Shown here piece after piece: positions 2,233 through 28,793 of a stretch of 38,826 nucleotides of DNA; within the stretch, counting starts at the first letter, position 1, and each line of letters opens with the position of its first letter. A program made the position numbers and the translations under genes. The notes beneath the pieces were generated by a model that saw nothing but the letters and a program-made list of their open reading frames with translations, was not told the DNA's origin and made no database searches. Source of the DNA: a virus; the UHGV virus genome UHGV-0114133. The stretch is one strand, 5' to 3'.

Positions 2233-2239
2233 TAACACT

Positions 2240-2840
2240 ATCCACTGCGGTGAGTAGCCAGCTCACCGCGTGTGAATCCGGCTCATAACCACTGTAGCGA
2301 GTAGAACACCCTTCAGGTATGCACCCCAACCACTGTAGTGAGCAAACCCTCTGCCACGATATCAACTATCCACTGTAGTGAGTAAATTGGTGATTATCGG
2401 GGTCGCTATACACTGTAGTGAGTAAACAGGCGTTCACTGACTACAAACAACCACTATAGAGAGTGATGGAATGCCCCCTCCAGCGGATATCCACTATGGA
2501 GAGTAAATCTTCGCTGTTTTAAACGGATATCCACTCACTACAGTGGATAGAGGTCAAGTCAGCCAATTCTGCTCTTCACAGTGGATAGTCAACAATGAGG
2601 AGAGCGACGATAACCGCTGTAGAGAGTAGACTTAACATGGATACCCAGTGACCGCTAACCTCTCAGCCCTTGTTTTATCTATGTTTGCAACCACTAACAT
2701 TTACTTCGCGATTTGTGCGCACTGCCTACAGTGGTTATTCTTCGGTTTCTTTTACTCACTACAGTGGATATTGCATTTCCGATAAACAAAAAGGCTCACT
2801 ACAGTGGATAGTGAGCCTTTTTACTCTCTACAGTGGTTGG
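2240..2840. repeat. Iteron array downstream of repA (incA-like copy-control locus), about 14 copies in both orientations
   Basis: Repeats of CCACTGTAGTGAGTA and variants and their reverse complements (TACTCACTACAGTGG) at irregular spacing. Confidence 0.8.
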
Positions 2841-2841
2841 G

Positions 2842-3897
2842 CTATTTGCGAGCCTTTGCCTTGCGCAGCTCTTCGAGAATCGCCAGTTCTTCCTTGCTCA
2901 ACATGACCATTTCCCCGTCTTTTTCTTCAGGAGCAACATCGATAATGTCCTCCGGATCATCACCTGGCAAGATATCTTCTGGCTCTTCAGGCGTGGCCAT
3001 AGATGGCGGCAGTGCCGAACGTAACTTCGGCCGTCTATAGTGGATGACGAAGTAGACCGAGCTGCCGCGTTTCACTTCAGTGTAATCGAGATAGCCGATC
3101 TCTCGCAGCTGCTCCATCGCCTTCCTGACTGTCGCATTCTGGGTAATGGTGCGGCTGGTTAAGTTAAGTCTGGCGCGTAAGCGAGCCAATGAGATTGGCG
3201 CCGGGTCTGGTGGCAAACTTTCAATGAAGGTGTAGAGCGCCTGCGCGGATTCCTTTCTGGAGAGTTCGTTGATGGCCCGAAGTTGCAAAAGCACCTTTTT
3301 GTCGAACTGGTAAAGTTCGAAAATCTTAGGATCGGCCTTCAGTTCGACCGTGTCATTCTTGGTACTGTACTTTGCCGTCTGCACAAGGTGCGTAACGTAA
3401 TACTCTTCAGAGCCTTTGCTGCGGAATGAGATGGTGTTTGTGGCGATACGACTTAGAGAGCTGTCCAGGCGCTTACGTAACTTCGCGGACGATCTGGCTG
3501 TTGGTATGCCACAAAGTCTGACGAACTCGACGAACGGCAACGTGACGGTGTCACCAACAACCTTGTGCTTGGCGAACGCGTGGATGATGCCCACCCATGT
3601 TTTGAAATCGTTATCCATATCAAGACGAAGACCAGCAATCCTTATATCCTCGTACCCTTCGGCTTTGGCCAGAGACAGCTGTTTGAGTTCAGCGGAGGCG
3701 TCCATAGAGACCATTTGCCCCTTTCTACCCCTGGATGTCGATTTCAGCGTCGGAACGAAGAGACCAAGACGCATCAGAGCAACAGGCTGAACTGTGTTGT
3801 TGGTGTTAGGAACTAACGTAACAACTTCGCCGGTCTTTTTGTCTGTTTCGGAAAATGCTTCGCTTATCGCAATGTTTTTATTGTCGTTTACGCTCAT
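2842..3897 (-). CDS. repA: Plasmid replication initiator RepA (iteron-binding, P1/RepFIB-like)
   Basis: 351-aa ORF flanked on both sides by iteron arrays; acidic C-terminus; organisation typical of P1-type replicons. Confidence 0.8.
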
Positions 3898-3940
3898 TCC
3901 AAATGTCTCTTTTTATTCGACGGCTTGGGTGCCTTTACTG

Positions 3941-4059
3941 ATTACAGTGGATAGTAGCACCCATCACAGTGGTTATCCTACCGCCTACAGCGGTTTTTCT
4001 ACTCTCCATAGTGGTTGATTTACTCTCCATAGTGGTTGTTCTTCTCACTATAGTGGATA
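3941..4059. repeat. Origin-proximal iterons (incC-like), 6 copies immediately upstream of repA
   Basis: TACTCTCCATAGTGGTTG and variants x6, same family as 2240-2840. Confidence 0.8.
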
Positions 4060-4099
4060 TCGATAACCTCTAAAGCCATGTGGCACAACGGTTTGCAGG

Positions 4100-4185
4100 G
4101 GCCGGGGATCTCTTTGGGTCTTTGTGGTTCTCTTTGGTTCTAACAGGGATCTGAATTACTGGATCGGGCCTGTGTATAAAAATCA
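4100..4185. promoter_or_regulatory. Origin-like segment A: 3 GATC sites plus DnaA-box-like TGTGTATAA
   Basis: GATC at 4107, 4148, 4162; TGTGTATAA at 4172 is one mismatch from the TGTGGATAA consensus. Confidence 0.5.
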
Positions 4186-4338
4186 GATAATTACAAAATC
4201 AGGCATCACTCCCCTTCTGGGGATAATGTGTGATCGAAATAAACACGCCGCAACGCAAAATTTACAATATTTCCAAGAATATCAGCCATCTGCCGCAGAA
4301 AAACAGGCTCGGAGTTATCCAGTTAAAACATTGTCTCC

Positions 4339-4442
4339 TACTCACTACAGTGGATACCGACTACTCTCCAGAGAGGTTGTTTTGCTCTTCATAGCGGTTA
4401 TTATGCTCTCTACAGTGGTTATTTTGCTCCCTATAGTGGATA
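4339..4442. repeat. Second iteron cluster (5 copies)
   Basis: TACTCACTACAGTGGATA, TGCTCTCTACAGTGGTTATT and similar. Confidence 0.75.
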
Positions 4443-4482
4443 GTAACCCCTTCTCAAGCCAGTAACCGCAAGCGCTGGAGAC

Positions 4483-6999: not shown

Positions 7000-8912
7000 A
7001 GTTTTTAAAGCTCCAGGTTGAAAATTTTATGGCAATCGCCAGCGCAGAAGTCGAGTTAGACCAGCGTGGACTGGTGCTGATCCAGGGTGTGAACAGTGGC
7101 GATACGTCTGCTGCCAGCAATGGCGCCGGGAAATCCACTCTGATGAATAGCTTAATGTGGTGTCTGTATGGTGAGACTGCACATGGCGTCAAAGGCGATG
7201 ACGTGCTGTCGACGGGCCATGAGAAGAACTGCCGTGTGATGGTTACAGTTGAAGACGAAGGTAAGAAATACGCGATCATTCGCCATCGTAAACACAAAGA
7301 GTTCAAGAACCGACTAATCGTCCGTGGTGAAGACGGTGATATGACCAAAGGCAAGGACACGCTGACACAGACGTTCGTAGAACGTCTGATTGGGGCATCG
7401 AAAGAGGTGTTCATGGCGTCCATCTACGCCAGTCAGGAAGCGATGCCAGATCTGCCCGGTATGTCCGACAAGAGCCTCAAAACCATCGTTGAAGAAGCTG
7501 CTGGCGTCGACCGATTGACGCGAGCCTATGCCATTGCCCGCGAGCGTGCTAATGCAGCTGCCGCACGTATGGACGTTACCAAATCCAAAATGGACGCCTG
7601 TCTCACGCTTATCGAGACTGCACAGTCAGAGATTGAGGCGGCCAAAGCGTCCTCTGAAAGCTGGGAGCGCGATCGCGGCGAGCGTCTGGACAAGGCCCGA
7701 GCCGATTTGGCTGGCGCGGAGGTAACACTGTCTGAAGTCGAGATGGAAATTCGCTCGCTGCCGGAACAGATCCGTGATACGGAAAACGCGATTGCTGGCG
7801 AACGCAGCAAGCTGGCCTCCAAAGAAGAGCATGACGCCAAACTGCTGAAGGTGCGCAGTGCTATTACTGAGATCCGCTCAAGCATCCGTACTTCAGAAGC
7901 GGCACAGAACGAGTCGATAAACCGTGCTCGCTCGTTTAAAACCAAAGCTGAAGAGGTCAGCACAAAGATCGGGGCACCCTGCATTACGTGCGGAAAGCCC
8001 TACTGCGAAGAAGATTTATCCACGGTGAAGGAGAGCTTCATTGAACAAGCGCGCAATGAGATCGGCCTTGCGCAGACATCAGCAGCGGCAGTGGCTCAAC
8101 ACAAGGCTCGTCTTGAGAAAGCGCTCGGTATCGAGTCTGCACTGGTCGCAGCCACACCCGACGTCTCAGAAATCATCTCCACAATAGAACGCCTGACCAA
8201 TGAGCTAAGTGCGCTGCGTCATCGCGAACGTGAAGTTGTGGCCGTCGAAGCGATGGTTGCGCGGGCGCGTACTGAAGTGAATCGCATCATGGCGGAAGCA
8301 AACCCATTTCTGGCCGTTATTAAGCGCCATGAAGACAACCTGGCTGCCAATAAATCTAATCATGCAGTACTTAAAAATGAGTTAAAGAGCATTCAGGAAC
8401 AGGCTCTGTTGCTGGAGAAGGCCCGCCAGGTTTACTCCCCAGCAGGCGTGCGTTCACACATCCTGACCTCCGTTACGCCTTTCCTGAACATCAGGACTGC
8501 GGAGTATCTCAACACGCTGTCGGACGGCAATATCGTTGCCGAATGGTCGACAATGGAGACAACGAAGAAAGGTGAGTATCGCGACAAATTCAATATCAGC
8601 GTAATCAAAACAGGCTCCAGCAAATCCTTCCAGACTTTGTCTGGTGGTGAGAAGCGTAAGGTACGTATTGCGTGCTCTCTGGCTTTGCAGGATCTGGTTG
8701 CCAGTCGCGCCAGTAAGAATATCGAGCTATTTATCGGTGATGAAATTGACGACGCGCTCGACACAGCCGGTCTGGAGCGTCTCATGGGGATTCTGGAAGC
8801 CAAAGCGCGTGAACGTGGCACAGTGATGATCATCTCCCACAAAGAGATGAAATCGTGGTTCCGGGAAATTATCACTGTCGAAGTTAAAGAGGGGCGCAGC
8901 TATGTCGTTTAA
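6996..8912 (+). CDS. SbcC/Rad50-like SMC-type ATPase
   Basis: Walker A GAGKST, central coiled coil with CxxC zinc hook (CITCGKPYC), signature LSGGEKRKV, Walker B FIGDEIDDALD; RBS before ATG at 6996; track extension from 6750 rejected. Confidence 0.85.
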   Translation: MKFLKLQVENFMAIASAEVELDQRGLVLIQGVNSGDTSAASNGAGKSTLMNSLMWCLYGETAHGVKGDDVLSTGHEKNCRVMVTVEDEGKKYAIIRHRKHKEFKNRLIVRGEDGDMTKGKDTLTQTFVERLIGASKEVFMASIYASQEAMPDLPGMSDKSLKTIVEEAAGVDRLTRAYAIARERANAAAARMDVTKSKMDACLTLIETAQSEIEAAKASSESWERDRGERLDKARADLAGAEVTLSEVEMEIRSLPEQIRDTENAIAGERSKLASKEEHDAKLLKVRSAITEIRSSIRTSEAAQNESINRARSFKTKAEEVSTKIGAPCITCGKPYCEEDLSTVKESFIEQARNEIGLAQTSAAAVAQHKARLEKALGIESALVAATPDVSEIISTIERLTNELSALRHREREVVAVEAMVARARTEVNRIMAEANPFLAVIKRHEDNLAANKSNHAVLKNELKSIQEQALLLEKARQVYSPAGVRSHILTSVTPFLNIRTAEYLNTLSDGNIVAEWSTMETTKKGEYRDKFNISVIKTGSSKSFQTLSGGEKRKVRIACSLALQDLVASRASKNIELFIGDEIDDALDTAGLERLMGILEAKARERGTVMIISHKEMKSWFREIITVEVKEGRSYVV

Positions 8913-9648
8913 CTTGAGCCGCACGCAGTTTTTGCAGATGTTTGCCGTGATGCAGTCTATAAAGCTGATAAACAACCATACAGCAAAAGTAACTCCGCCT
9001 GCACTTTTGTGGAAAAACGTAAACATCAGCGACGACCAGTTCTCGGTATTAACCAATCTATTGTCATCGACTCCTTTGATGCCGAGCTTGGCTAATCTGC
9101 CGTCAGGAAGCACTGCGCCGATCCTTATTAATCCATTTACGGAAGGTGGATATCTCCCACATTCTGGGCCGGGGTTCGTTGTGATTCCTGAAACCGGAAC
9201 GCTGAACATCCAAGAAAATGCACTCTTCAATGCAATGGAGACGCACATCAGCACCGCATTCACTAATCTGATTCGACACGCTAACGCACGCGCGGATCAC
9301 GTTGCAATGCCGGGTGCTGCCTTCGCCAGCTTCTCTGTTGACTATGACCGGCACGCGCCAATTTCAGAACGGGCGAAACTTTGTTTTTACGAGGAAGGAG
9401 GCGAAGTAGCGATTATTGAAGTTCTCCTCCCCCACGTATTCAACGCGAATGAAAAGGCTGCGTGCCAACTTATTGACATCATGCGGCATTTCATCGGCCA
9501 GAGCATGATTGATGCAGATATTGCTGCAGGCGTTCTGAGCAACGATGGCATTCACGTAGTTAACGACATTCCGAAGCCGCCAACTCGAGAGCCGGAAAAG
9601 ACACTTGAACAGAAACTAATGGAATGCCCAACCTGGGCTACGTGGTAA
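8902..9648 (+). CDS. hypothetical protein (248 aa), translationally coupled to SbcC-like gene
   Basis: ATG overlaps SbcC stop; no recognised motif. Confidence 0.6.
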   Translation: MSFNLSRTQFLQMFAVMQSIKLINNHTAKVTPPALLWKNVNISDDQFSVLTNLLSSTPLMPSLANLPSGSTAPILINPFTEGGYLPHSGPGFVVIPETGTLNIQENALFNAMETHISTAFTNLIRHANARADHVAMPGAAFASFSVDYDRHAPISERAKLCFYEEGGEVAIIEVLLPHVFNANEKAACQLIDIMRHFIGQSMIDADIAAGVLSNDGIHVVNDIPKPPTREPEKTLEQKLMECPTWATW

Positions 9649-18334: not shown

Positions 18335-18354
18335 ATAGGTAAGTATTTACCTAT
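18335..18354. promoter_or_regulatory. Palindromic operator-like site
   Basis: ataggtaagtatttacctat, 13 nt upstream of dam. Confidence 0.5.
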
Positions 18355-18366
18355 CAGAGTAAAGTA

Positions 18367-18960
18367 ATGATCGCAGCCGAAAAAATCAAAAAGCGAGAGC
18401 GTGATGCCTCTCTTCGCGACCTTTGGCGCACACCGCAGTGGTTGTTTGTCGCCATCCAACGTTACATAGGCGTAAAGTTCGATGTGGACGTCGCCTGCAA
18501 CAAAGATAATGCTCTCCTGCCGAACTTTATCGGTGTTGAGCGTGATGCGCTCAAGTGCAGTTGGGGAGAACCTGGCACTGTGGCGTTCCTTAACCCGCCC
18601 TACTCCAAAATCACCCCCTGGATAGATGCAGCCATTCGCGAGCAGGCGCGTGGAGTGACGACGGTCATGCTGATACCACAATCCCTCGATACGCAGTGGT
18701 ACGAGCGTGCGGCTGAATGCGCCAACGAAACCGTCATCTTGTCTGGCGGCCGCGTGGCGTTCGTTGAGCCGGATGTTGAACTTGGGCTGGTGGAGGTGAA
18801 CATCAACCCTGGTGGCAGCATGTTGCTTATCTTCCGTGGCTACTGTCAGGAAGCTGGGCACACCATCAGCAAGATACCGCTGGCGGTGATGAAAAAGCTG
18901 GGTGGTTATGACCCTGCCAATGTTGTCAGGAAGAAGAGACCACGTAAAAAGGCAGCGTAA
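18367..18960 (+). CDS. dam: Phage-type DNA N6-adenine methyltransferase (Dam family)
   Basis: DLWRTPQWLF N-terminal motif, NPPYS catalytic motif; GATC cluster at the replication origin suggests the target. Confidence 0.8.
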   Translation: MIAAEKIKKRERDASLRDLWRTPQWLFVAIQRYIGVKFDVDVACNKDNALLPNFIGVERDALKCSWGEPGTVAFLNPPYSKITPWIDAAIREQARGVTTVMLIPQSLDTQWYERAAECANETVILSGGRVAFVEPDVELGLVEVNINPGGSMLLIFRGYCQEAGHTISKIPLAVMKKLGGYDPANVVRKKRPRKKAA

Positions 18961-19987: not shown

Positions 19988-20596
19988 ATGACGACCAAGA
20001 ACCCAGTCCGGCAACGCACTGGCTGCCGCACGAAGTCTAAAGCCAGATGCCAAACCCACCAGCATTCCCGTACCAATTTCAACACACCCGTAGTCGAGTT
20101 CAATCCCCAGCTCAAAACCGTAAAAGTATTCAGTGATGGCTCTTGCCTCAAAAATCCGGGCGGGCCGGGCGGTTACGGCATCGTTCTCCAGTATCGAGGC
20201 GAAGAGCGCGAGCTTTCTGAGGGCTTCCACAGCACGACCAACAATCGGATGGAGATGATGGGCGCCCTGATTGCGCTGGAGCGTCTGAAGTACCCCTGCA
20301 ACGTGATCCTGCATTCCGACAGCCAGTATCTTAAAAACGGCATGACGCTCTGGATGAAAGGCTGGAAGCGTAACGGATGGATCACGTCTGAGAAGAAGCC
20401 AGTCAAAAACGTGGATCTCTGGAAACGTCTCGACGCGGCCGCCAGTCGTCATAATGTCCGCTGGAAGTGGGTTAAAGGCCATGCAGGTCATCGCGAGAAC
20501 GAAATGTGTGACCGTCTGGCGAAGATCGCCGCCTATTCCGCAGCTGATATGCCTCACAAGCATGACATTGGGTTTTTGTCACAAAAAGATAAGTAA
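19988..20596 (+). CDS. rnhA: Ribonuclease HI with about 38-aa basic N-terminal extension
   Basis: [67 protein letters not shown] (close to E. coli RNase HI as recalled from memory). Confidence 0.85.
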
Positions 20597-22419: not shown

Positions 22420-22449
22420 TAACACAATTGAGAAAACAACTTGTTTAAA
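22420..22449 (+). promoter_or_regulatory. Cassette leader motif
   Basis: taacacaattgagaaaacaacttgtttaaa, 19 nt upstream of ATG 22468. Confidence 0.45.
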
Positions 22450-23028: not shown

Positions 23029-23049
23029 ATATTTATATATTAATAATAA

Positions 23050-23095
23050 TTCCTTAAGGTGGCTACAGCCTCTTAAGGAATTATTTGGCTTTTTC
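23050..23095. terminator. Bidirectional terminator between convergent genes
   Basis: TCCTTAAGG...CTTAAGGAA stem followed by TTATTTGGCTTTTT. Confidence 0.5.
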
Positions 23096-23122
23096 GCAAA
23101 TGATAAGAATTATATCGTTGTT

Positions 23123-23566
23123 TTATAAACCTGGGTCAATAATCTCATCTATGAAGTCGCGAGATTTATCGTTGAATCCCAACGCGGAGAAACGCATAAC
23201 AAGATCATTATTTTGAATCGTAACATAGTCTTTGCGCATAAATTCTCCAAAAATATATTTGATACCCTCTTTAGTGTAGGCATACCAATACATTCCTATC
23301 GTACGATCACAATTCTGATACCAACGAAGTTTCACGCCGTTGACATACATGCCTTGAGCTACGCCACTACCTGAACACTTAAAGAAATTCCGCGAAGTAA
23401 GGTAGATGTTTGCATTGCCATCCGACGTTCTTTCTAGGAACACATACCAATTACCGTCGTCTGACATTACAACAGGTCTTCCTGTTTCTGTTAAATACCA
23501 TCCTTCGGCATTAGCTGATGCTAAGCTACTGATAAACAAAAATACTGCGATAACTAACCTGTGCAT
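23123..23566 (-). CDS. secreted protein with signal peptide (147 aa)
   Basis: MHRLVIAVFLFISSLASANA signal-like N-terminus; Trp/Tyr-rich mature part. Confidence 0.6.
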   Translation of the reverse strand: MHRLVIAVFLFISSLASANAEGWYLTETGRPVVMSDDGNWYVFLERTSDGNANIYLTSRNFFKCSGSGVAQGMYVNGVKLRWYQNCDRTIGMYWYAYTKEGIKYIFGEFMRKDYVTIQNNDLVMRFSALGFNDKSRDFIDEIIDPGL

Positions 23567-23726
23567 TAATGTGTCCTTTTAATTCTGTTATATGCAGATT
23601 GAGATGCTTTGCTACGTAATTAATATTATATCTAGGTTGAGGTCAAGAATCTAATACTAGGAATTGTCAACATTAATTCTATTAACGCACCCTAATAAAA
23701 AGTATTGGTTTCTTTTAAGTTTTTTA

Positions 23727-23760
23727 GATAATAACACCAACAAGAAAACAATTTGTTTAA
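23727..23760 (+). promoter_or_regulatory. Cassette promoter/leader motif (type I)
   Basis: gataataacaccaacaagaaaacaatttgtttaa, 11 nt upstream of ATG 23771. Confidence 0.5.
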
Positions 23761-23770
23761 TGGTGCAATC

Positions 23771-25456
23771 ATGAATACAGCCCTTTCCATCATTGACGCT
23801 TTCACCCCAAACACTGATATCGACTACCGGCAGGAAATGAATGTTATCCACGAAATTGTGGCCGAATGCGAGAAAGAGATTGCGTTCATGAATAAGGTTC
23901 ACGACTTCGTTTATGGCGACGAACGCCACAACATGATTAACCGTCTACTGCGGCTCAATCACCGGCCGGACGACGAGCGAACACGCTTTAACAGAACCTG
24001 GCTGGACAAAGTCGACCTGGAATGGGTGAAACAAAATATCTGGGCCGAGTACTGGAAGAAGGTCACGGATATGACCAACGTTCTGCTGATCATGCCAGCA
24101 TCCCGCCGCGACGAGTGGCGTGAACAGTTTATCGAGGGCAAGCAGGAAACGATCAAGACTGACAGAACTGGCTATCAAATGAAGGTTAAAGAGTTCGTTG
24201 GTGTACCTGAGTTCAAAGCAGAAACGGTCATACCAACGATGCTTAATTTGCTGAATGACAGGCACAAATATCTCTCTGAGCGCGTGTATGGCTTGTTTAA
24301 GGCGTTGAGTCCTGCTCACAAGACCAATAAGACGAACGGCTTCAGCGAGCGTCTGATCATCGCCGACTGCATTTCCGATTTCTGGCGGGACAGCGTCAGC
24401 GTTAACTACCGGAAAGAGGATTACATAGACGACCTGCGCGTCATGTTGCATTTCTTTGCACACAAAGAATTTATCACCATCAACCGCACGGCCGAGATGC
24501 TGTCAGCTGCGTATCGAGCAAATGACTGCCAGACCGGCGACTGGATGAATGTCGACGGAAACCTGATGCGTGTGAAGATGTTTAAGAACGGCAACGTTCA
24601 CTTTGAAATACATCCTGACGTAGCCTGGAAGCTGAATGAGGTGCTGGCTTACAGTATGCCCGCTGCAATTCCGGCTCCATGTCGTACTGCGCCCAAAACA
24701 CGGGCACCAAAACAGTTCGGGTTAATCCAGAAGACGATCTCCGAGCCGGTGCGTACTGCGCTTTGCGACGGGCGATCTGGCAATGACAAACGCGTATGGT
24801 ACTTCTCTGATTCCGGTCTCCAGAAGTCACAGGTGGAAGAGCTGGAGCGTACACTGAGCTTTATTGGCGGCGTGCAGGAGAACAAGCACTGGCAGTTCCC
24901 GTATGAGATCGGCCATACGCTCAATACGATTGTGGCCACCGGCTTAATACCGGATACAAAATCACACCAGTTCTACCCTACCCCGCGTTTGATAGCGGAG
25001 TACGTTGCCAGAGCCATCGAGCTGAAGCCAGGTGAGAAGCTGCTGGAGCCTGAAGCCGGGCGCGGAGATCTGCTGGCCTGCATCGACGCCAATCCGGAAG
25101 ACGTTACCTGCATAGAAGTCGCACCTCTCTTCGCTGATATCCTGCTTGGCAAGGGGTACACAAATACGGTCTGCTGCGACTTCATGAAGTGGTCTGAGGA
25201 CAACGCAGGTTATCAGTTCGACAAAATCGTTATGAACCCGCCCTACTCTCTTGGCCGTCACAGAGAGCATACGCTGGCCGCGCTGGAGCATCTTAAAGTC
25301 GGCGGGCGACTGGTGGCTGTACTGCCGGGTGATGCGCCAGTTCTGAACTGGATGTCGCTGGATAATTACGTTTATGCCAAAGGGAAGTCGTTTACTGACG
25401 AGTTTGAAGACACCGGGATTACTGTCAGCGTATACGTTTTTAAACGCGTTAAATGA
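23771..25456 (+). CDS. DNA methyltransferase (N6-adenine type) with about 430-aa N-terminal domain of unknown function
   Basis: C-terminal AdoMet motif LEPEAGRGDLL and catalytic NPPYS. Confidence 0.7.
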   Translation: MNTALSIIDAFTPNTDIDYRQEMNVIHEIVAECEKEIAFMNKVHDFVYGDERHNMINRLLRLNHRPDDERTRFNRTWLDKVDLEWVKQNIWAEYWKKVTDMTNVLLIMPASRRDEWREQFIEGKQETIKTDRTGYQMKVKEFVGVPEFKAETVIPTMLNLLNDRHKYLSERVYGLFKALSPAHKTNKTNGFSERLIIADCISDFWRDSVSVNYRKEDYIDDLRVMLHFFAHKEFITINRTAEMLSAAYRANDCQTGDWMNVDGNLMRVKMFKNGNVHFEIHPDVAWKLNEVLAYSMPAAIPAPCRTAPKTRAPKQFGLIQKTISEPVRTALCDGRSGNDKRVWYFSDSGLQKSQVEELERTLSFIGGVQENKHWQFPYEIGHTLNTIVATGLIPDTKSHQFYPTPRLIAEYVARAIELKPGEKLLEPEAGRGDLLACIDANPEDVTCIEVAPLFADILLGKGYTNTVCCDFMKWSEDNAGYQFDKIVMNPPYSLGRHREHTLAALEHLKVGGRLVAVLPGDAPVLNWMSLDNYVYAKGKSFTDEFEDTGITVSVYVFKRVK

Positions 25457-25476
25457 TAGGTAAATGCTTACCTAAT
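25455..25476. promoter_or_regulatory. Palindromic operator-like site
   Basis: gataggtaaatgcttacctaat overlapping the methyltransferase stop. Confidence 0.45.
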
Positions 25477-25518
25477 ATATGTAAGAATATAGTGACTATA
25501 TGATAAGAGAAAAAACAC

Positions 25519-26208
25519 ATGAGCAATCTTCCGTTAGAGCGTTTTAACGTCAAAAGCCATGCCGACTTTCCTTTCAAATTTGTAATGAGAGGTTATGCAG
25601 AGGAAGCAGTAGGCCAGATCATCATTGACAAAGGCATTGTTAAGTTTGAAGGGGATTATGATGAATCCGCGAAAACATTCATAGACTTCGTTGCTAAACG
25701 TTGGAGCGAGCAATGGAGAGACCTGGAAAAACGTGCTCGTAAATTTGATACATTCATGTCTTCAATTGATACAGCAAAAACGGCTCTGGCTGCGGGTACT
25801 CCGTTAGATTTGGAGTCTCTGTTTAAAGGTGAAATGGCCTCTGCGATGTTCGCAACCATGTTTGCCGGTGAGTTTGTTCGTAGCGGGGCCAGAAACTACC
25901 TGGAGCTGGGGTACGACGTTCCTGAAATGGGTGAGTTTACCGTCACCATTCAACGCAAAGAAGGTAAGACTCCTGGCGAACGTATCGCTGAACTTGAGGC
26001 CGTTGTGGATCAGCGTAACGGCGAGTGCGTCCGTTTGATTAATGAACGTGATGCGCTGCGCGAAGAGCAGCTAAACAAAGGCTCGAACACGCGCGCGACC
26101 GCAGACATCTACTTCCAGTTGGTTGAGGAATGCCAGATCCCGCCAGGTGGCTCTTTGGTCGAGTTCGTTCGCGAATTGCAGGAGAAAGCAGAGAGGTGCG
26201 CGGCATGA
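25519..26208 (+). CDS. hypothetical protein (229 aa)
   Basis: RBS-like GAGAAAAAACAC before ATG; no recognised motif. Confidence 0.6.
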   Translation: MSNLPLERFNVKSHADFPFKFVMRGYAEEAVGQIIIDKGIVKFEGDYDESAKTFIDFVAKRWSEQWRDLEKRARKFDTFMSSIDTAKTALAAGTPLDLESLFKGEMASAMFATMFAGEFVRSGARNYLELGYDVPEMGEFTVTIQRKEGKTPGERIAELEAVVDQRNGECVRLINERDALREEQLNKGSNTRATADIYFQLVEECQIPPGGSLVEFVRELQEKAERCAA

Positions 26209-26444
26209 ATGATCTGCTTGTCGAGCGAGTCTCCGCTTTTGTTAAGTCCCCGCTGAATAATCCCCTCACCCGCGGTGAGCAGATGGAGCTGGCAAGGTGG
26301 TTTCTGCGTATCCATGAGCAGATGGAAGTTTTTAAACAGTTGCCGGATCTGCCCATTACAGACGGCCAAATTCAGTGTGCCACTTCAGTACGGTCGACGA
26401 TGACAACGACGCAAACCTGCTTTTCGTCAAATCCGAAATCATAA
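26205..26444 (+). CDS. hypothetical protein (79 aa)
   Basis: ATG overlaps upstream stop (ATGA). Confidence 0.45.
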   Translation: MNDLLVERVSAFVKSPLNNPLTRGEQMELARWFLRIHEQMEVFKQLPDLPITDGQIQCATSVRSTMTTTQTCFSSNPKS

Positions 26445-26490
26445 AGTTGCGCAGGGAGAGAGAGAAATCGACGCAGAGCAGGCCCGCAAT

Positions 26491-26706
26491 ATGTGGGACG
26501 AGGCAGAAAACGCTGATGACGTAAAAGAAAGTTGCTGCTGTTTCGGTGTCGGTAACGAACTGCTGAGTCTGTTTGGTGACGATCCGTGGTATGCCGGTTG
26601 GCCAACGGTGCCAAACCCCAGATACCAATACCTGGAACGTATCATGAACGCGGTACGTGATGGGCTGAAAGAGCTTCACAATCAGATGAGAGAAGCAATC
26701 GGTTAA
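26491..26706 (+). CDS. hypothetical protein (71 aa)
   Basis: ORF with protein-like composition; start uncertain. Confidence 0.4.
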   Translation: MWDEAENADDVKESCCCFGVGNELLSLFGDDPWYAGWPTVPNPRYQYLERIMNAVRDGLKELHNQMREAIG

Positions 26707-26744
26707 GTGCTATAGTCAGGCGCTTTTATATTTATGGAGTGAAT

Positions 26745-27443
26745 ATGAAAAATATCCTACTGGCATCATTGTTGGTGGCATCGCCGGCTGTATTTGCAGC
26801 CAGCTTTGACTGCCAAAAGGCTTCGGCAGAAATCGAACACAAAATCTGCGATAACGAACGCCTGTCAAAATTAGACGAACAACTTAGCTCTACCTATTCC
26901 AACGCACTCAAAGCAAACCCGGGGGACGCAGACGCCTTAAAGACGGTTCAGCGTCAATGGGTAAGTATGCGTGGAAAACTCACTGGTGATAAGGCTCTGG
27001 AGCTGGCTTATCTAATCCAAATTAATGGCCTCAAGAGTTTGGATGGTTCGGCCAGCACTGCGGTGGTCAATGAGACACCAAAGCCTGTGCAGAAACAGCC
27101 TGAAGTTCAGGAAAAGATAAGCAAGGCAGACACAAAGCAGGCTGAGAGCGGTAAAAAGCTAACTCTGGAGTCATTCCGAGCTAAGTATATTGAAGTTGAC
27201 GGTGAATACTACAGCACGACATCCCTTCCCAGAGGGAGTTCGTTCTTGTTCACCTGCGCAAGTCGTATCGCAGATGACCAGGTGAATATTTGGAAGAAGG
27301 TGGCAGCCAAAGAGGGCAAGATCGATCTCTTCTTTGAACTTGAGAATCGAATACATACCGCAATGCTGAATGCCAATTTTCAGAAGCTAAATAGTGATTT
27401 AACTAAAACAGGCATTTGCGATCTGATTACTGCTGTTCCGTAA
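26745..27443 (+). CDS. periplasmic protein, LprI/DUF1311-like N-terminal domain
   Basis: Signal peptide MKNILLASLLVASPAVFA, then SFDCQKA...E..IC.N..L..LD..L...Y pattern resembling the lysozyme-inhibitor LprI family. Confidence 0.55.
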   Translation: MKNILLASLLVASPAVFAASFDCQKASAEIEHKICDNERLSKLDEQLSSTYSNALKANPGDADALKTVQRQWVSMRGKLTGDKALELAYLIQINGLKSLDGSASTAVVNETPKPVQKQPEVQEKISKADTKQAESGKKLTLESFRAKYIEVDGEYYSTTSLPRGSSFLFTCASRIADDQVNIWKKVAAKEGKIDLFFELENRIHTAMLNANFQKLNSDLTKTGICDLITAVP

Positions 27444-27450
27444 GCCAGAT

Positions 27451-27471
27451 AAGGCCACTATTTGTGGCCTT
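27451..27471 (+). terminator. Hairpin of the AAGGCCAC...GTGGCCTT terminator family
   Basis: aaggccactatttgtggcctt directly after the 26745 gene; no U-tract. Confidence 0.4.
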
Positions 27472-27488
27472 AAACAATTTGTTTAATT
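27471..27488 (+). promoter_or_regulatory. Cassette leader motif
   Basis: taaacaatttgtttaatt. Confidence 0.4.
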
Positions 27489-27787
27489 AGTGGTGTAATT
27501 ATTGGAATCCCAGGCGAACTAAATCCATTGGGCAGAACAGATCTTCCACACCTTCGATAGACACGCAGTCAGAGCGGCGTAATTGTTCTTCTGATTTGCC
27601 TTCCCCACTGATTTCTCTGATTACTCCCGTTGCGCCATTCATTGCCACCATGACATGGCTGCCGATAGTGATAGCATTACGGTTTCGATCATACGCCTTT
27701 ATCGTTTTCTCCTTTCACATGGGGCAAATCAGGTTTCAAAAATTGCCGTTTTCCATGTATATGCGATTTGCAAAATATCAATTTCCT

Positions 27788-28196: not shown

Positions 28197-28232
28197 ATAA
28201 TAATACCAATAAGAAAACAAATTGTTTAAGGA
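28197..28232 (+). promoter_or_regulatory. Cassette promoter/leader motif (type I)
   Basis: gataataataccaataagaaaacaaattgtttaagg, ending 8 nt before ATG 28240. Confidence 0.5.
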
Positions 28233-28239
28233 GTTGATC

Positions 28240-28476
28240 ATGTTCGGAACCGCAAAAGACATCATCGAAAAGCTGGAGAACTACCCAGAAGACGAGCCGC
28301 TGCTGATGGTGATGTGGCACAAGGAAGATGTAGGTGAAGTGCGACCAGACCTGACTGACGAACAGTGCGTTCAGGTTTTGCGAAAAATCAAAGAGTGCCA
28401 TGACACCAGCGTCGGCGTGAATTGGGATGTCATTTCTGACACGGCCAACATTCTGTTTCCAAAGGAGAAGGCATGA
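28240..28476 (+). CDS. hypothetical small acidic protein (78 aa)
   Basis: AGGAG RBS then ATG at 28240; track start 28222 is TTG inside the motif. Confidence 0.55.
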   Translation: MFGTAKDIIEKLENYPEDEPLLMVMWHKEDVGEVRPDLTDEQCVQVLRKIKECHDTSVGVNWDVISDTANILFPKEKA

Positions 28477-28793
28477 TGCTGAAAATCACCGAATCGTATA
28501 AGACGGCGGTGATCAGCACCGCCCACGTAACGGCAGCGGATTCAGAACGGCTACCCATTGCCTGCTTCGACCCACTTACTGATCGCGGGTTGAATTGGTT
28601 ACACGGTACACAGTACGGCTGGATTGTTCGTGCTGGAATGCGAGGGAATGACTGGAAGGAAGAACTGCGTGAGTACGGCATTTCCCAAGAGGCGATCTCC
28701 AACATACAGACCATACTGGATGACGGCTTTGACGTGGTTCACTTCGATTGCGACGCCGAGCTGGTGGATGGGCTACCTGCATGGGAATGGTGA
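28473..28793 (+). CDS. hypothetical protein (106 aa)
   Basis: ATG overlaps upstream stop (ATGA); RBS AAGGAGAAGG. Confidence 0.55.
   Translation: MMLKITESYKTAVISTAHVTAADSERLPIACFDPLTDRGLNWLHGTQYGWIVRAGMRGNDWKEELREYGISQEAISNIQTILDDGFDVVHFDCDAELVDGLPAWEW

Follow-up and report, generated by a model that had tools for sequence, protein, structure and literature searches.

The viral genome UHGV-0114133, a stretch of 38,826 nucleotides (hereafter the window), carries on its plus strand a gene for a methyltransferase of 561 amino acids (aa) whose sequence places it clearly in the catalogued DUF4942-MTase family (PHROG 6263). Ahead of the gene stand a promoter-like element and a repeated leader motif. 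Behind it come an operator-like palindrome, three open reading frames (ORFs) of 229, 79 and 71 aa in the same orientation, and a terminator-like hairpin. The methylase gene is genuine and strong purifying selection acts on it, and the enzyme is an orphan, with no nuclease partner and no neighbor conserved across its relatives. On balance we favor the view that it is an N6-adenine DNA methyltransferase, expressed early, with an anti-restriction or self-marking role. The locus as a whole is real but largely ordinary, consisting of an orphan methylase of a widespread family, one accessory gene, and what are probably two deletion remnants.

PHROG 6263 is annotated "DNA methyltransferase" and matches the protein from end to end. 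An earlier, sequence-only reading of this DNA had placed here a long plus-strand ORF starting at 23771 and encoding 567 aa. The ORF holds, ending at 25456, and so does the start coordinate, an ATG; the length does not, since 567 aa belongs to a TTG codon at 23753. We rejected that TTG in favor of the ATG because it falls within the shared leader motif and because most homologs begin at the ATG; of the 330 homologs found, most are likewise 561 aa long. Compared with its counterparts in SSU5, Cyrano and pJN2-26, the gene has a ratio of nonsynonymous to synonymous substitution rates (dN/dS) of 0.03-0.07, whereas neighboring accessory genes give 0.12-0.18 and are thus under weaker constraint. Given the ratio in the plus-strand frame, the minus-strand ORFs within the gene (up to 172 aa) were dismissed as spurious.

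The catalytic core is a minimal Rossmann domain. In an alignment of 20 homologs (A1), QFYPTP, LEPxAGxG and NPP(Y/F)S are kept throughout, DF at residues 470-471 is also invariant, and the order of motifs X, I, DF and IV aligns to that of M.TaqI. The pattern (F/Y)(F/Y)TP is the motif X of HsdM/TaqI-type DNA adenine methylases. Motif I lies 55-64 aa ahead of NPPYS, in agreement with the C-terminal methyltransferase core, with its S-adenosylmethionine (AdoMet) motif about 50 aa before NPPYS, that had been read from the sequence earlier. Because the protein stops 68 aa after NPPY, it has no C-terminal target-recognition domain (TRD) of the M.TaqI type. The best sequence matches of the family profile among solved structures were M.TaqI (E 1e-3), HsdM of EcoR124 (E 7e-3), and another adenine DNA methylase; the full-length protein gave only marginal methylase matches to solved structures. 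In PADLOC the methylase matched the mad2 methylase (3e-15) and the Type II methylase MTase_II (7e-10), Pfam Eco57I matched three of 65 relatives, and a Foldseek search with the full model (predicted local distance difference test, pLDDT, 83) placed the HsdM structure 2okc on top. The core and the small domain ahead of it (aa 336-560) recur within giant proteins of phages, 1,259-3,925 aa long (PHROGs 9133, 11358, 15406 and 10691). In Epa33, an F116-like phage, the protein in question is a "structural protein" of about 3,800 aa, and in phage Parlo it is labeled "DarB-like antirestriction".

The N-terminal module comprises variable helices (aa 1-85), a conserved DUF4942 core (86-305), a variable linker (306-365) and a small alpha/beta domain (366-395). 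It had been described as free of recognizable motifs, and these roughly 395 residues do lack any catalytic motif; they do not lack a known domain, since Pfam DUF4942 (PF13708) matches aa 140-295 with a score of 74.5 bits, where the cutoff is 25, and matches all 65 aligned relatives. Searched alone against 1.84 billion representatives, aa 1-395 found 615 clusters at 50% identity; among the 150 matches listed, nearly all were 510-580 aa long, so the module appears almost always to be joined to the same methylase core. A search of BFVD with the module returned only two uncharacterized viral proteins, and a solved structural counterpart was sought and not found. We recognized no DNA-binding TRD in the methylase; a TRD C-terminal to the core and a separate S subunit are both absent. 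In the most distant homolog group, identity is 39% over the DUF4942 core and 38% over the catalytic domain, with aa 1-85 and 306-365 variable. Invariant polar residues of the module include S180, H183, T185, N186, D262, H277 and N289.

Table 1. Features of the methylase locus, with the second methylase of the window (coordinates are window positions)
Feature	Position	Strand	Basis or remarks
Promoter-like element: TTGGTT 23705-23710, 16-nt spacer, GATAAT 23727-23732	23705..23732	+	Read from sequence
26-nt leader ACACCAACAAGAAAACAATTTGTTTA with inner palindrome AAACAAnTTGTTT	23734..23759	+	5 matches at <=3 mismatches vs 0.00 expected
DUF4942-methyltransferase gene, 561 aa	23771..25456	+	ORF; PHROG 6263, full length, E 3e-296
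N-terminal module, aa 1-395	23771..24955	+	Variable helices, DUF4942 core, linker, small domain
Class-I methyltransferase core, aa 396-561	24956..25453	+	Invariant columns in A1; profile matches
Motif X, QFYPTP (aa 400-405)	24968-24985	+	Invariant in A1
Motif I, LEPEAGRGDL (aa 425-434)	25043-25072	+	Invariant in A1
Motif IV, NPPYS (aa 489-493)	25235-25249	+	Invariant in A1
18-bp palindrome TAGGTAAATGCTTACCTA, operator-like	25457..25474	.	Directly after methylase stop, 45 nt before 229-aa ORF
Ead/Ea22-like accessory gene, 229 aa	25519..26208	+	PHROG 8364, E 1.7e-133
79-aa ORF	26205..26444	+	First ~55 aa of Eaa-like protein (SSU5_097) plus 24-aa out-of-frame tail
Deletion junction	26376..26386	.	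1,448 bp gone vs SSU5 (L002 6646-8093)
71-aa ORF	26491..26706	+	Residues 113-183 of SSU5_100-like protein; tblastn to L002 8196-8408
Terminator-like hairpin and T-rich tail	26705..26735	+	Pattern scan, consensus match only
Second adenine methylase, phage Dam type	18367..18960	+	Pfam Dam PF05869 E 4.4e-37; TIGR01712 E 2.4e-32

By sequence similarity the replicon is an SSU5-like phage-plasmid of E. coli. A 3.5-kb region of the locus matches 572 plasmid records, mostly IncFIB plasmids of about 100-120 kb typed as "non-mobilizable" and hosted by Escherichia, Klebsiella, Enterobacter and Salmonella; the same region is 92% identical to Salmonella phage SSU5, and over its first 25 kb the window is 99% identical to E. 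coli plasmids with RepA, thymidylate synthase and related genes. On these grounds we take the window to be part of such an element. The DUF4942-methylase gene lies in its replication and early-gene half, near RepA, RNase H and Dam, and the presence of two adenine methylases on one replicon, suggested previously, is borne out by the Pfam match of the Dam gene.

The family reaches well beyond this replicon. Relatives are found in SSU5-like elements whose hosts range from Escherichia to Providencia, Xenorhabdus and Morganella; in the nin-type region of a lambdoid prophage of Klebsiella aerogenes, with a DnaT-like replication gene on one side and an antiterminator on the other; in the Pseudomonas phages Dolphis and phiPSA1 and one further phage contig; and on IncHI2 conjugative plasmids, where 1.7 kb separate a 563-aa homolog (30% identity) and a Dam gene, with one further similar arrangement. 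The pairing of two adenine methylases thus recurs on an unrelated replicon. In three IncHI2-type records (L008 4300-8584, L009 4351-8635 and L007 3655-7638), a DUF4942-methylase of 545-563 aa stands 1.5-1.8 kb from a Dam-family gene, with a hypothetical gene of about 360-387 aa between the two. Altogether 2,540 plasmid records hold a relative, and 1,376 of them are conjugative.

The genes that accompany the methylase change from one relative to the next. In seven distant loci, whose methylases are 30-57% identical to ours, the neighboring genes have nothing in common between loci; all seven lack homologs of the 79- and 71-aa ORFs, and also of the 229-aa ORF, apart from one locus with a partial homolog of the latter 3 kb upstream. 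When the 229-, 79-, 71-, 234-, 147- and 195-aa ORFs near the gene were scanned for a partner, no match to a nuclease, ATPase or defense family appeared in Pfam, NCBIfam, PHROGs or PADLOC. The downstream ORFs are unlinked in relatives and no effector goes with the enzyme, two of the findings that the sequence-only reading had said would speak against a system; the N-terminal region, for its part, does not align to a standard target-recognition domain.

The three ORFs downstream exist as had been reported, including the ATGA overlap of the 229- and 79-aa frames; the 229-aa frame is a genuine, conserved gene, and the other two are probably not independent genes. Orthologs of the 229-aa gene, 66-80% identical, directly follow the methylase in SSU5, Cyrano (where it is annotated Ead-Ea22) and pJN2-26, a linkage that is synteny within the close SSU5 clade only. 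Its dN/dS of 0.18 is about three times that of the methylase, and comparison with solved structures produced no relatives. One end of PHROG 3451 (287 aa) matches aa 11-103 of the 229-aa protein and the other end matches the 71-aa remnant; from this split match, the Ead/Ea22-like proteins of these elements appear to be modular, swapping N- and C-terminal parts.

The 79- and 71-aa ORFs are probably truncated remnants on either side of a deletion. The blastn alignment of window positions 25400-26375 to 5674-6645 of L002 resumes with 26387-27499 against 8094-9204, and what has been lost between is the 3' end of the Eaa gene, SSU5_098, the HD hydrolase SSU5_099 (ppGpp hydrolase-like), and the 5' end of SSU5_100. 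The tblastn match of the 79-aa ORF is confined to its residues 1-57, and DNA homology to SSU5 stops at 26375. The 71-aa ORF is also parted from the retained upstream portion of its gene by a 2-bp insertion at about 26453, as seen in frame analysis and the DNA alignment. Related plasmids carry either form of the region, deleted or long. The terminator-like hairpin ends this downstream unit, ahead of an LprI-family gene at 26739-27443.

Two sets of dispersed motifs frame the methylase. The leader motif that had been noted upstream of the gene is confirmed, and at up to five mismatches it has seven plus-strand copies, at 22422, 23734, 28203, 30996, 31865, 33513 and 33998. A GATAAT hexamer resembling a -10 element precedes every copy, and a Shine-Dalgarno sequence and ATG follow it; the hexamer and an upstream T-rich/GCC box ahead of the methylase, where we read a putative promoter that a simple consensus scan did not report, recur ahead of the other copies. 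In front of the methylase the leader is kept in SSU5 and pJN2-26. It looks like a promoter and 5' untranslated region common to a set of small transcription units of accessory genes, at least seven in number, that lie between 22.4 and 34 kb, an arrangement that suggests one co-regulated, possibly early, regulon. Scans of the window for Rfam families and for tRNAs gave no match, so the leader is not a known RNA family, and no match to it turned up in the literature searched. Another of the copies stands ahead of the genes at 28222-28793, which include one for a DUF5983 protein (28473-28793, by Pfam); the ortholog of the ORF preceding that gene is annotated DUF1380 in related records.

The other motif, an 18-bp palindrome, perfect or nearly so (TAGGTAAGTAYTTACCTA), occurs at nine sites with up to three mismatches (0.00 expected): 1162, 1489, 5548, 10979, 12254, 18336, 19394, 20590 and 25457. 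These sites precede plus-strand genes, including the Dam methylase (its copy spanning 18336-18353) and the 229-aa ORF, and TATAAT directly follows the site at 20590. We suspect a dispersed operator of a dimeric regulator. The position of the palindrome after the methylase is kept in L001 and SSU5, and since it sits between the methylase stop and the 229-aa ORF, the downstream ORFs appear to form a unit apart from the methylase. Different control motifs stand ahead of the window's two methylases, the leader before the DUF4942 type and the palindrome before Dam.

The substrate, product and target sequence of the DUF4942 methylase are inferred. We take the substrate to be adenine in DNA, because motif X is typical of HsdM and TaqI, the strongest library matches are DNA methylases, and the genomic settings are those of DNA modification. 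An account of its function might then run as follows. After entry or induction, transcription of the methylase would start at its own promoter, together with that of the other units headed by the leader. The DUF4942 module would place the catalytic core on DNA, standing in for a classical TRD, and the enzyme would methylate adenines of the phage-plasmid, and of its host. The methylated element would be shielded from adenine-methylation-sensitive restriction when moving between enterobacterial hosts, which would complement the Dam methylase of GATC type whose gene lies 5 kb upstream. The self-protective or anti-restriction methylase that had been offered as one possibility fits with what we find: an orphan gene of a phage-plasmid, a core akin to those of restriction-modification, defense and virion methylases, and conservation from one mobile element to another free of any partner.

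Several observations weigh against this account. Pfam N6_Mtase reaches only 15.3 bits on the protein, under its 20.4 cutoff (MTS, PF05175, gives 13.2 against 23), and among the 65 relatives MTS matches 46 (E <= 0.01, best 5e-9) compared with nine for N6_Mtase. In Foldseek the RNA and protein methylases TrmN, RlmL, Trm11 and PH1948 score near the DNA methylases. The DUF4942 core is conserved as strongly as the catalytic core; typical TRDs are hypervariable, which makes a role for the module in DNA recognition a guess. The near-core status of the gene in SSU5-like elements might speak for housekeeping or regulation rather than pure anti-restriction, and the literature searched held no methylation data for the family.

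The Pfam and Foldseek results would suit an enzyme that does not act on DNA at all, in which a Rossmann domain with NPPY and without a TRD modifies RNA (m2G or m6A) or protein glutamine, and DUF4942 binds the substrate, for example in answer to an RNA-targeting host defense. MTS is the small-domain type of RsmC, RsmD and HemK, the Foldseek E-values obtained with the model are similar for both classes of enzyme, and the failure to recognize a DNA-binding TRD is in keeping with the idea. We nevertheless think it quite improbable. QFYPTP stands directly before motif I, as motif X does in HsdM and TaqI, and aligns to both Pfam N6_Mtase and M.TaqI; mad2 and MTase_II, the strongest library matches, are DNA methylases of defense systems; and a nin-type region, the vicinity of Dam, and the interior of DarB-like virion proteins are all settings typical of DNA-modifying enzymes. 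Less likely still is the proposal, made from the sequence earlier, that the methylase is the modification half of an unrecognized restriction or defense system with its effector in the 229-, 79- or 71-aa ORF. The shared orientation and tight spacing of the ORFs, the overlap of the first two, and the constant place of the 229-aa gene behind the methylase in SSU5, Cyrano and pJN2-26 are what recommended it. We consider it largely refuted: the nuclease partner looked for downstream gave no match in Pfam, NCBIfam, PHROGs or PADLOC, two of the candidate effectors are probably debris of a deletion, the third does not adjoin the methylase in the seven distant loci and evolves under looser constraint, and between methylase and 229-aa gene lies an operator-like palindrome that recurs at eight further places.

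A different kind of alternative accepts the DNA methylase and changes its purpose. The enzyme could be an epigenetic or housekeeping one that marks the element's own DNA for replication, packaging, or the timing of lysis and lysogeny, protection from restriction being secondary; this overlaps in part with the anti-restriction or self-marking role that we favor. Dam methylation, for instance, times pac cleavage in P1. The breadth of genera over which SSU5-like elements keep the gene, its constraint relative to the accessory genes around it, its location in the replication half, and the recurrent company of a Dam gene on unrelated replicons are all consistent with such a role. The family, however, also inhabits prophage nin-type regions and IncHI2 plasmids, whose replication and packaging machinery differs greatly, so that a replicon-specific regulatory function is hard to generalize, and no candidate methylation-sensitive site is known; we regard this alternative as unlikely, if worth keeping in mind. 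Of about the same doubtful standing is a more speculative proposal, that the DUF4942 module is not a sequence-reading TRD but a conserved targeting or clamping device. A TaqI-like core with relaxed or no specificity, or one acting only on entering or replicating DNA, would then represent a third class of broad-spectrum anti-restriction methylases beside the Hia5 and M.EcoGIX types, a class that may be common to SSU5-like phage-plasmids, lambdoid prophages, Pseudomonas phages and IncHI2 resistance plasmids. The conservation of the DUF4942 core, its want of a solved counterpart, the kinship of the catalytic core to DarB-like proteins, and the spread of the family over so many plasmid records would fit with this.

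For the orphan anti-restriction methylase that we favor, the closest functional analogs would be phage Dam types, injected methylases of the DarB-like kind, and M.EcoGIX of IncI1 and IncF leading regions. In its catalytic core the enzyme resembles the M.TaqI/HsdM-type (gamma-order) N6-adenine methylases, with motifs X (QFYPTP), I (LEPxAGxGxL), III-like (DFxxW) and IV (NPPY) in that order. The sequence similarity is weak (E about 1e-3), and in place of a C-terminal TRD, and of HsdS and HsdR, our enzyme has the 395-aa DUF4942 module. The DarB-like or polyvalent virion proteins (P1 DarB type, F116-like giants) share the catalytic core and small domain with it, and by analogy the two likely share the purpose of guarding incoming DNA from restriction. 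Those are giant multidomain proteins (methylase plus helicase and others), encoded with structural genes and packaged in the virion; the window enzyme is free-standing, encoded among early and accessory genes, and has no helicase or other polyvalent domains.

M.EcoGIX and M.BceJIII are methylases of the leading regions of IncI1 and IncF plasmids (PMC7736820). Like the window enzyme, M.EcoGIX is an orphan adenine methylase of a mobile element, silent or expressed early and proposed to guard entering DNA, but it is a beta-class DPPY enzyme (PMC7736820). That class membership rules out homology, which makes M.EcoGIX an analog and not a relative of our gamma-order NPPY enzyme with its DUF4942 module; the phage-plasmid replicon of the latter is also typed as non-mobilizable. 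Promiscuity on single strands in SAY contexts is a feature of M.EcoGIX. The phage Dam-type orphans (PF05869) are again adenine methylases without partners in the early or replication regions of temperate phages, and both types occur together here and on IncHI2 plasmids. They differ in belonging to an unrelated family with another architecture, in their size of about 200 aa, and in their known GATC specificity. No functional data on DUF4942, on the methylases of SSU5 or pHCM2, or on anti-restriction in phage-plasmids appeared in the literature searched.

Near-identical copies of this locus are already annotated in public records, and the interest that remains lies in the conserved DUF4942 module and in which sequences are targeted by a methylase family common to phage-plasmids and IncHI2 plasmids. 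The family is large, as its number of clusters attests, and strongly constrained. In Enterobacterales, resistance genes are commonly carried by SSU5-like phage-plasmids and by IncHI2 plasmids, and both kinds of element hold the family, often beside Dam. If the enzyme protects broadly from restriction, it would help to explain the wide host range of these elements.

Two minor features of the replicon may be added. A 692-bp insertion of low GC content (about 38%; 23029-23720), probably a moron, separates the 195-aa gene from the promoter of the methylase and carries a minus-strand ORF of 147 aa (23123-23566) with a signal-peptide-like N-terminus; SSU5 and most relatives lack the insertion, which is present in three plasmid records only. 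Elsewhere in the window, at 2238-4445, dense arrays of iterons of about 19-21 nt (CTCACTACAGTGGATA and its reverse complement) flank a minus-strand ORF (2842-3897) and correspond to a RepA-type origin of the plasmid prophage.

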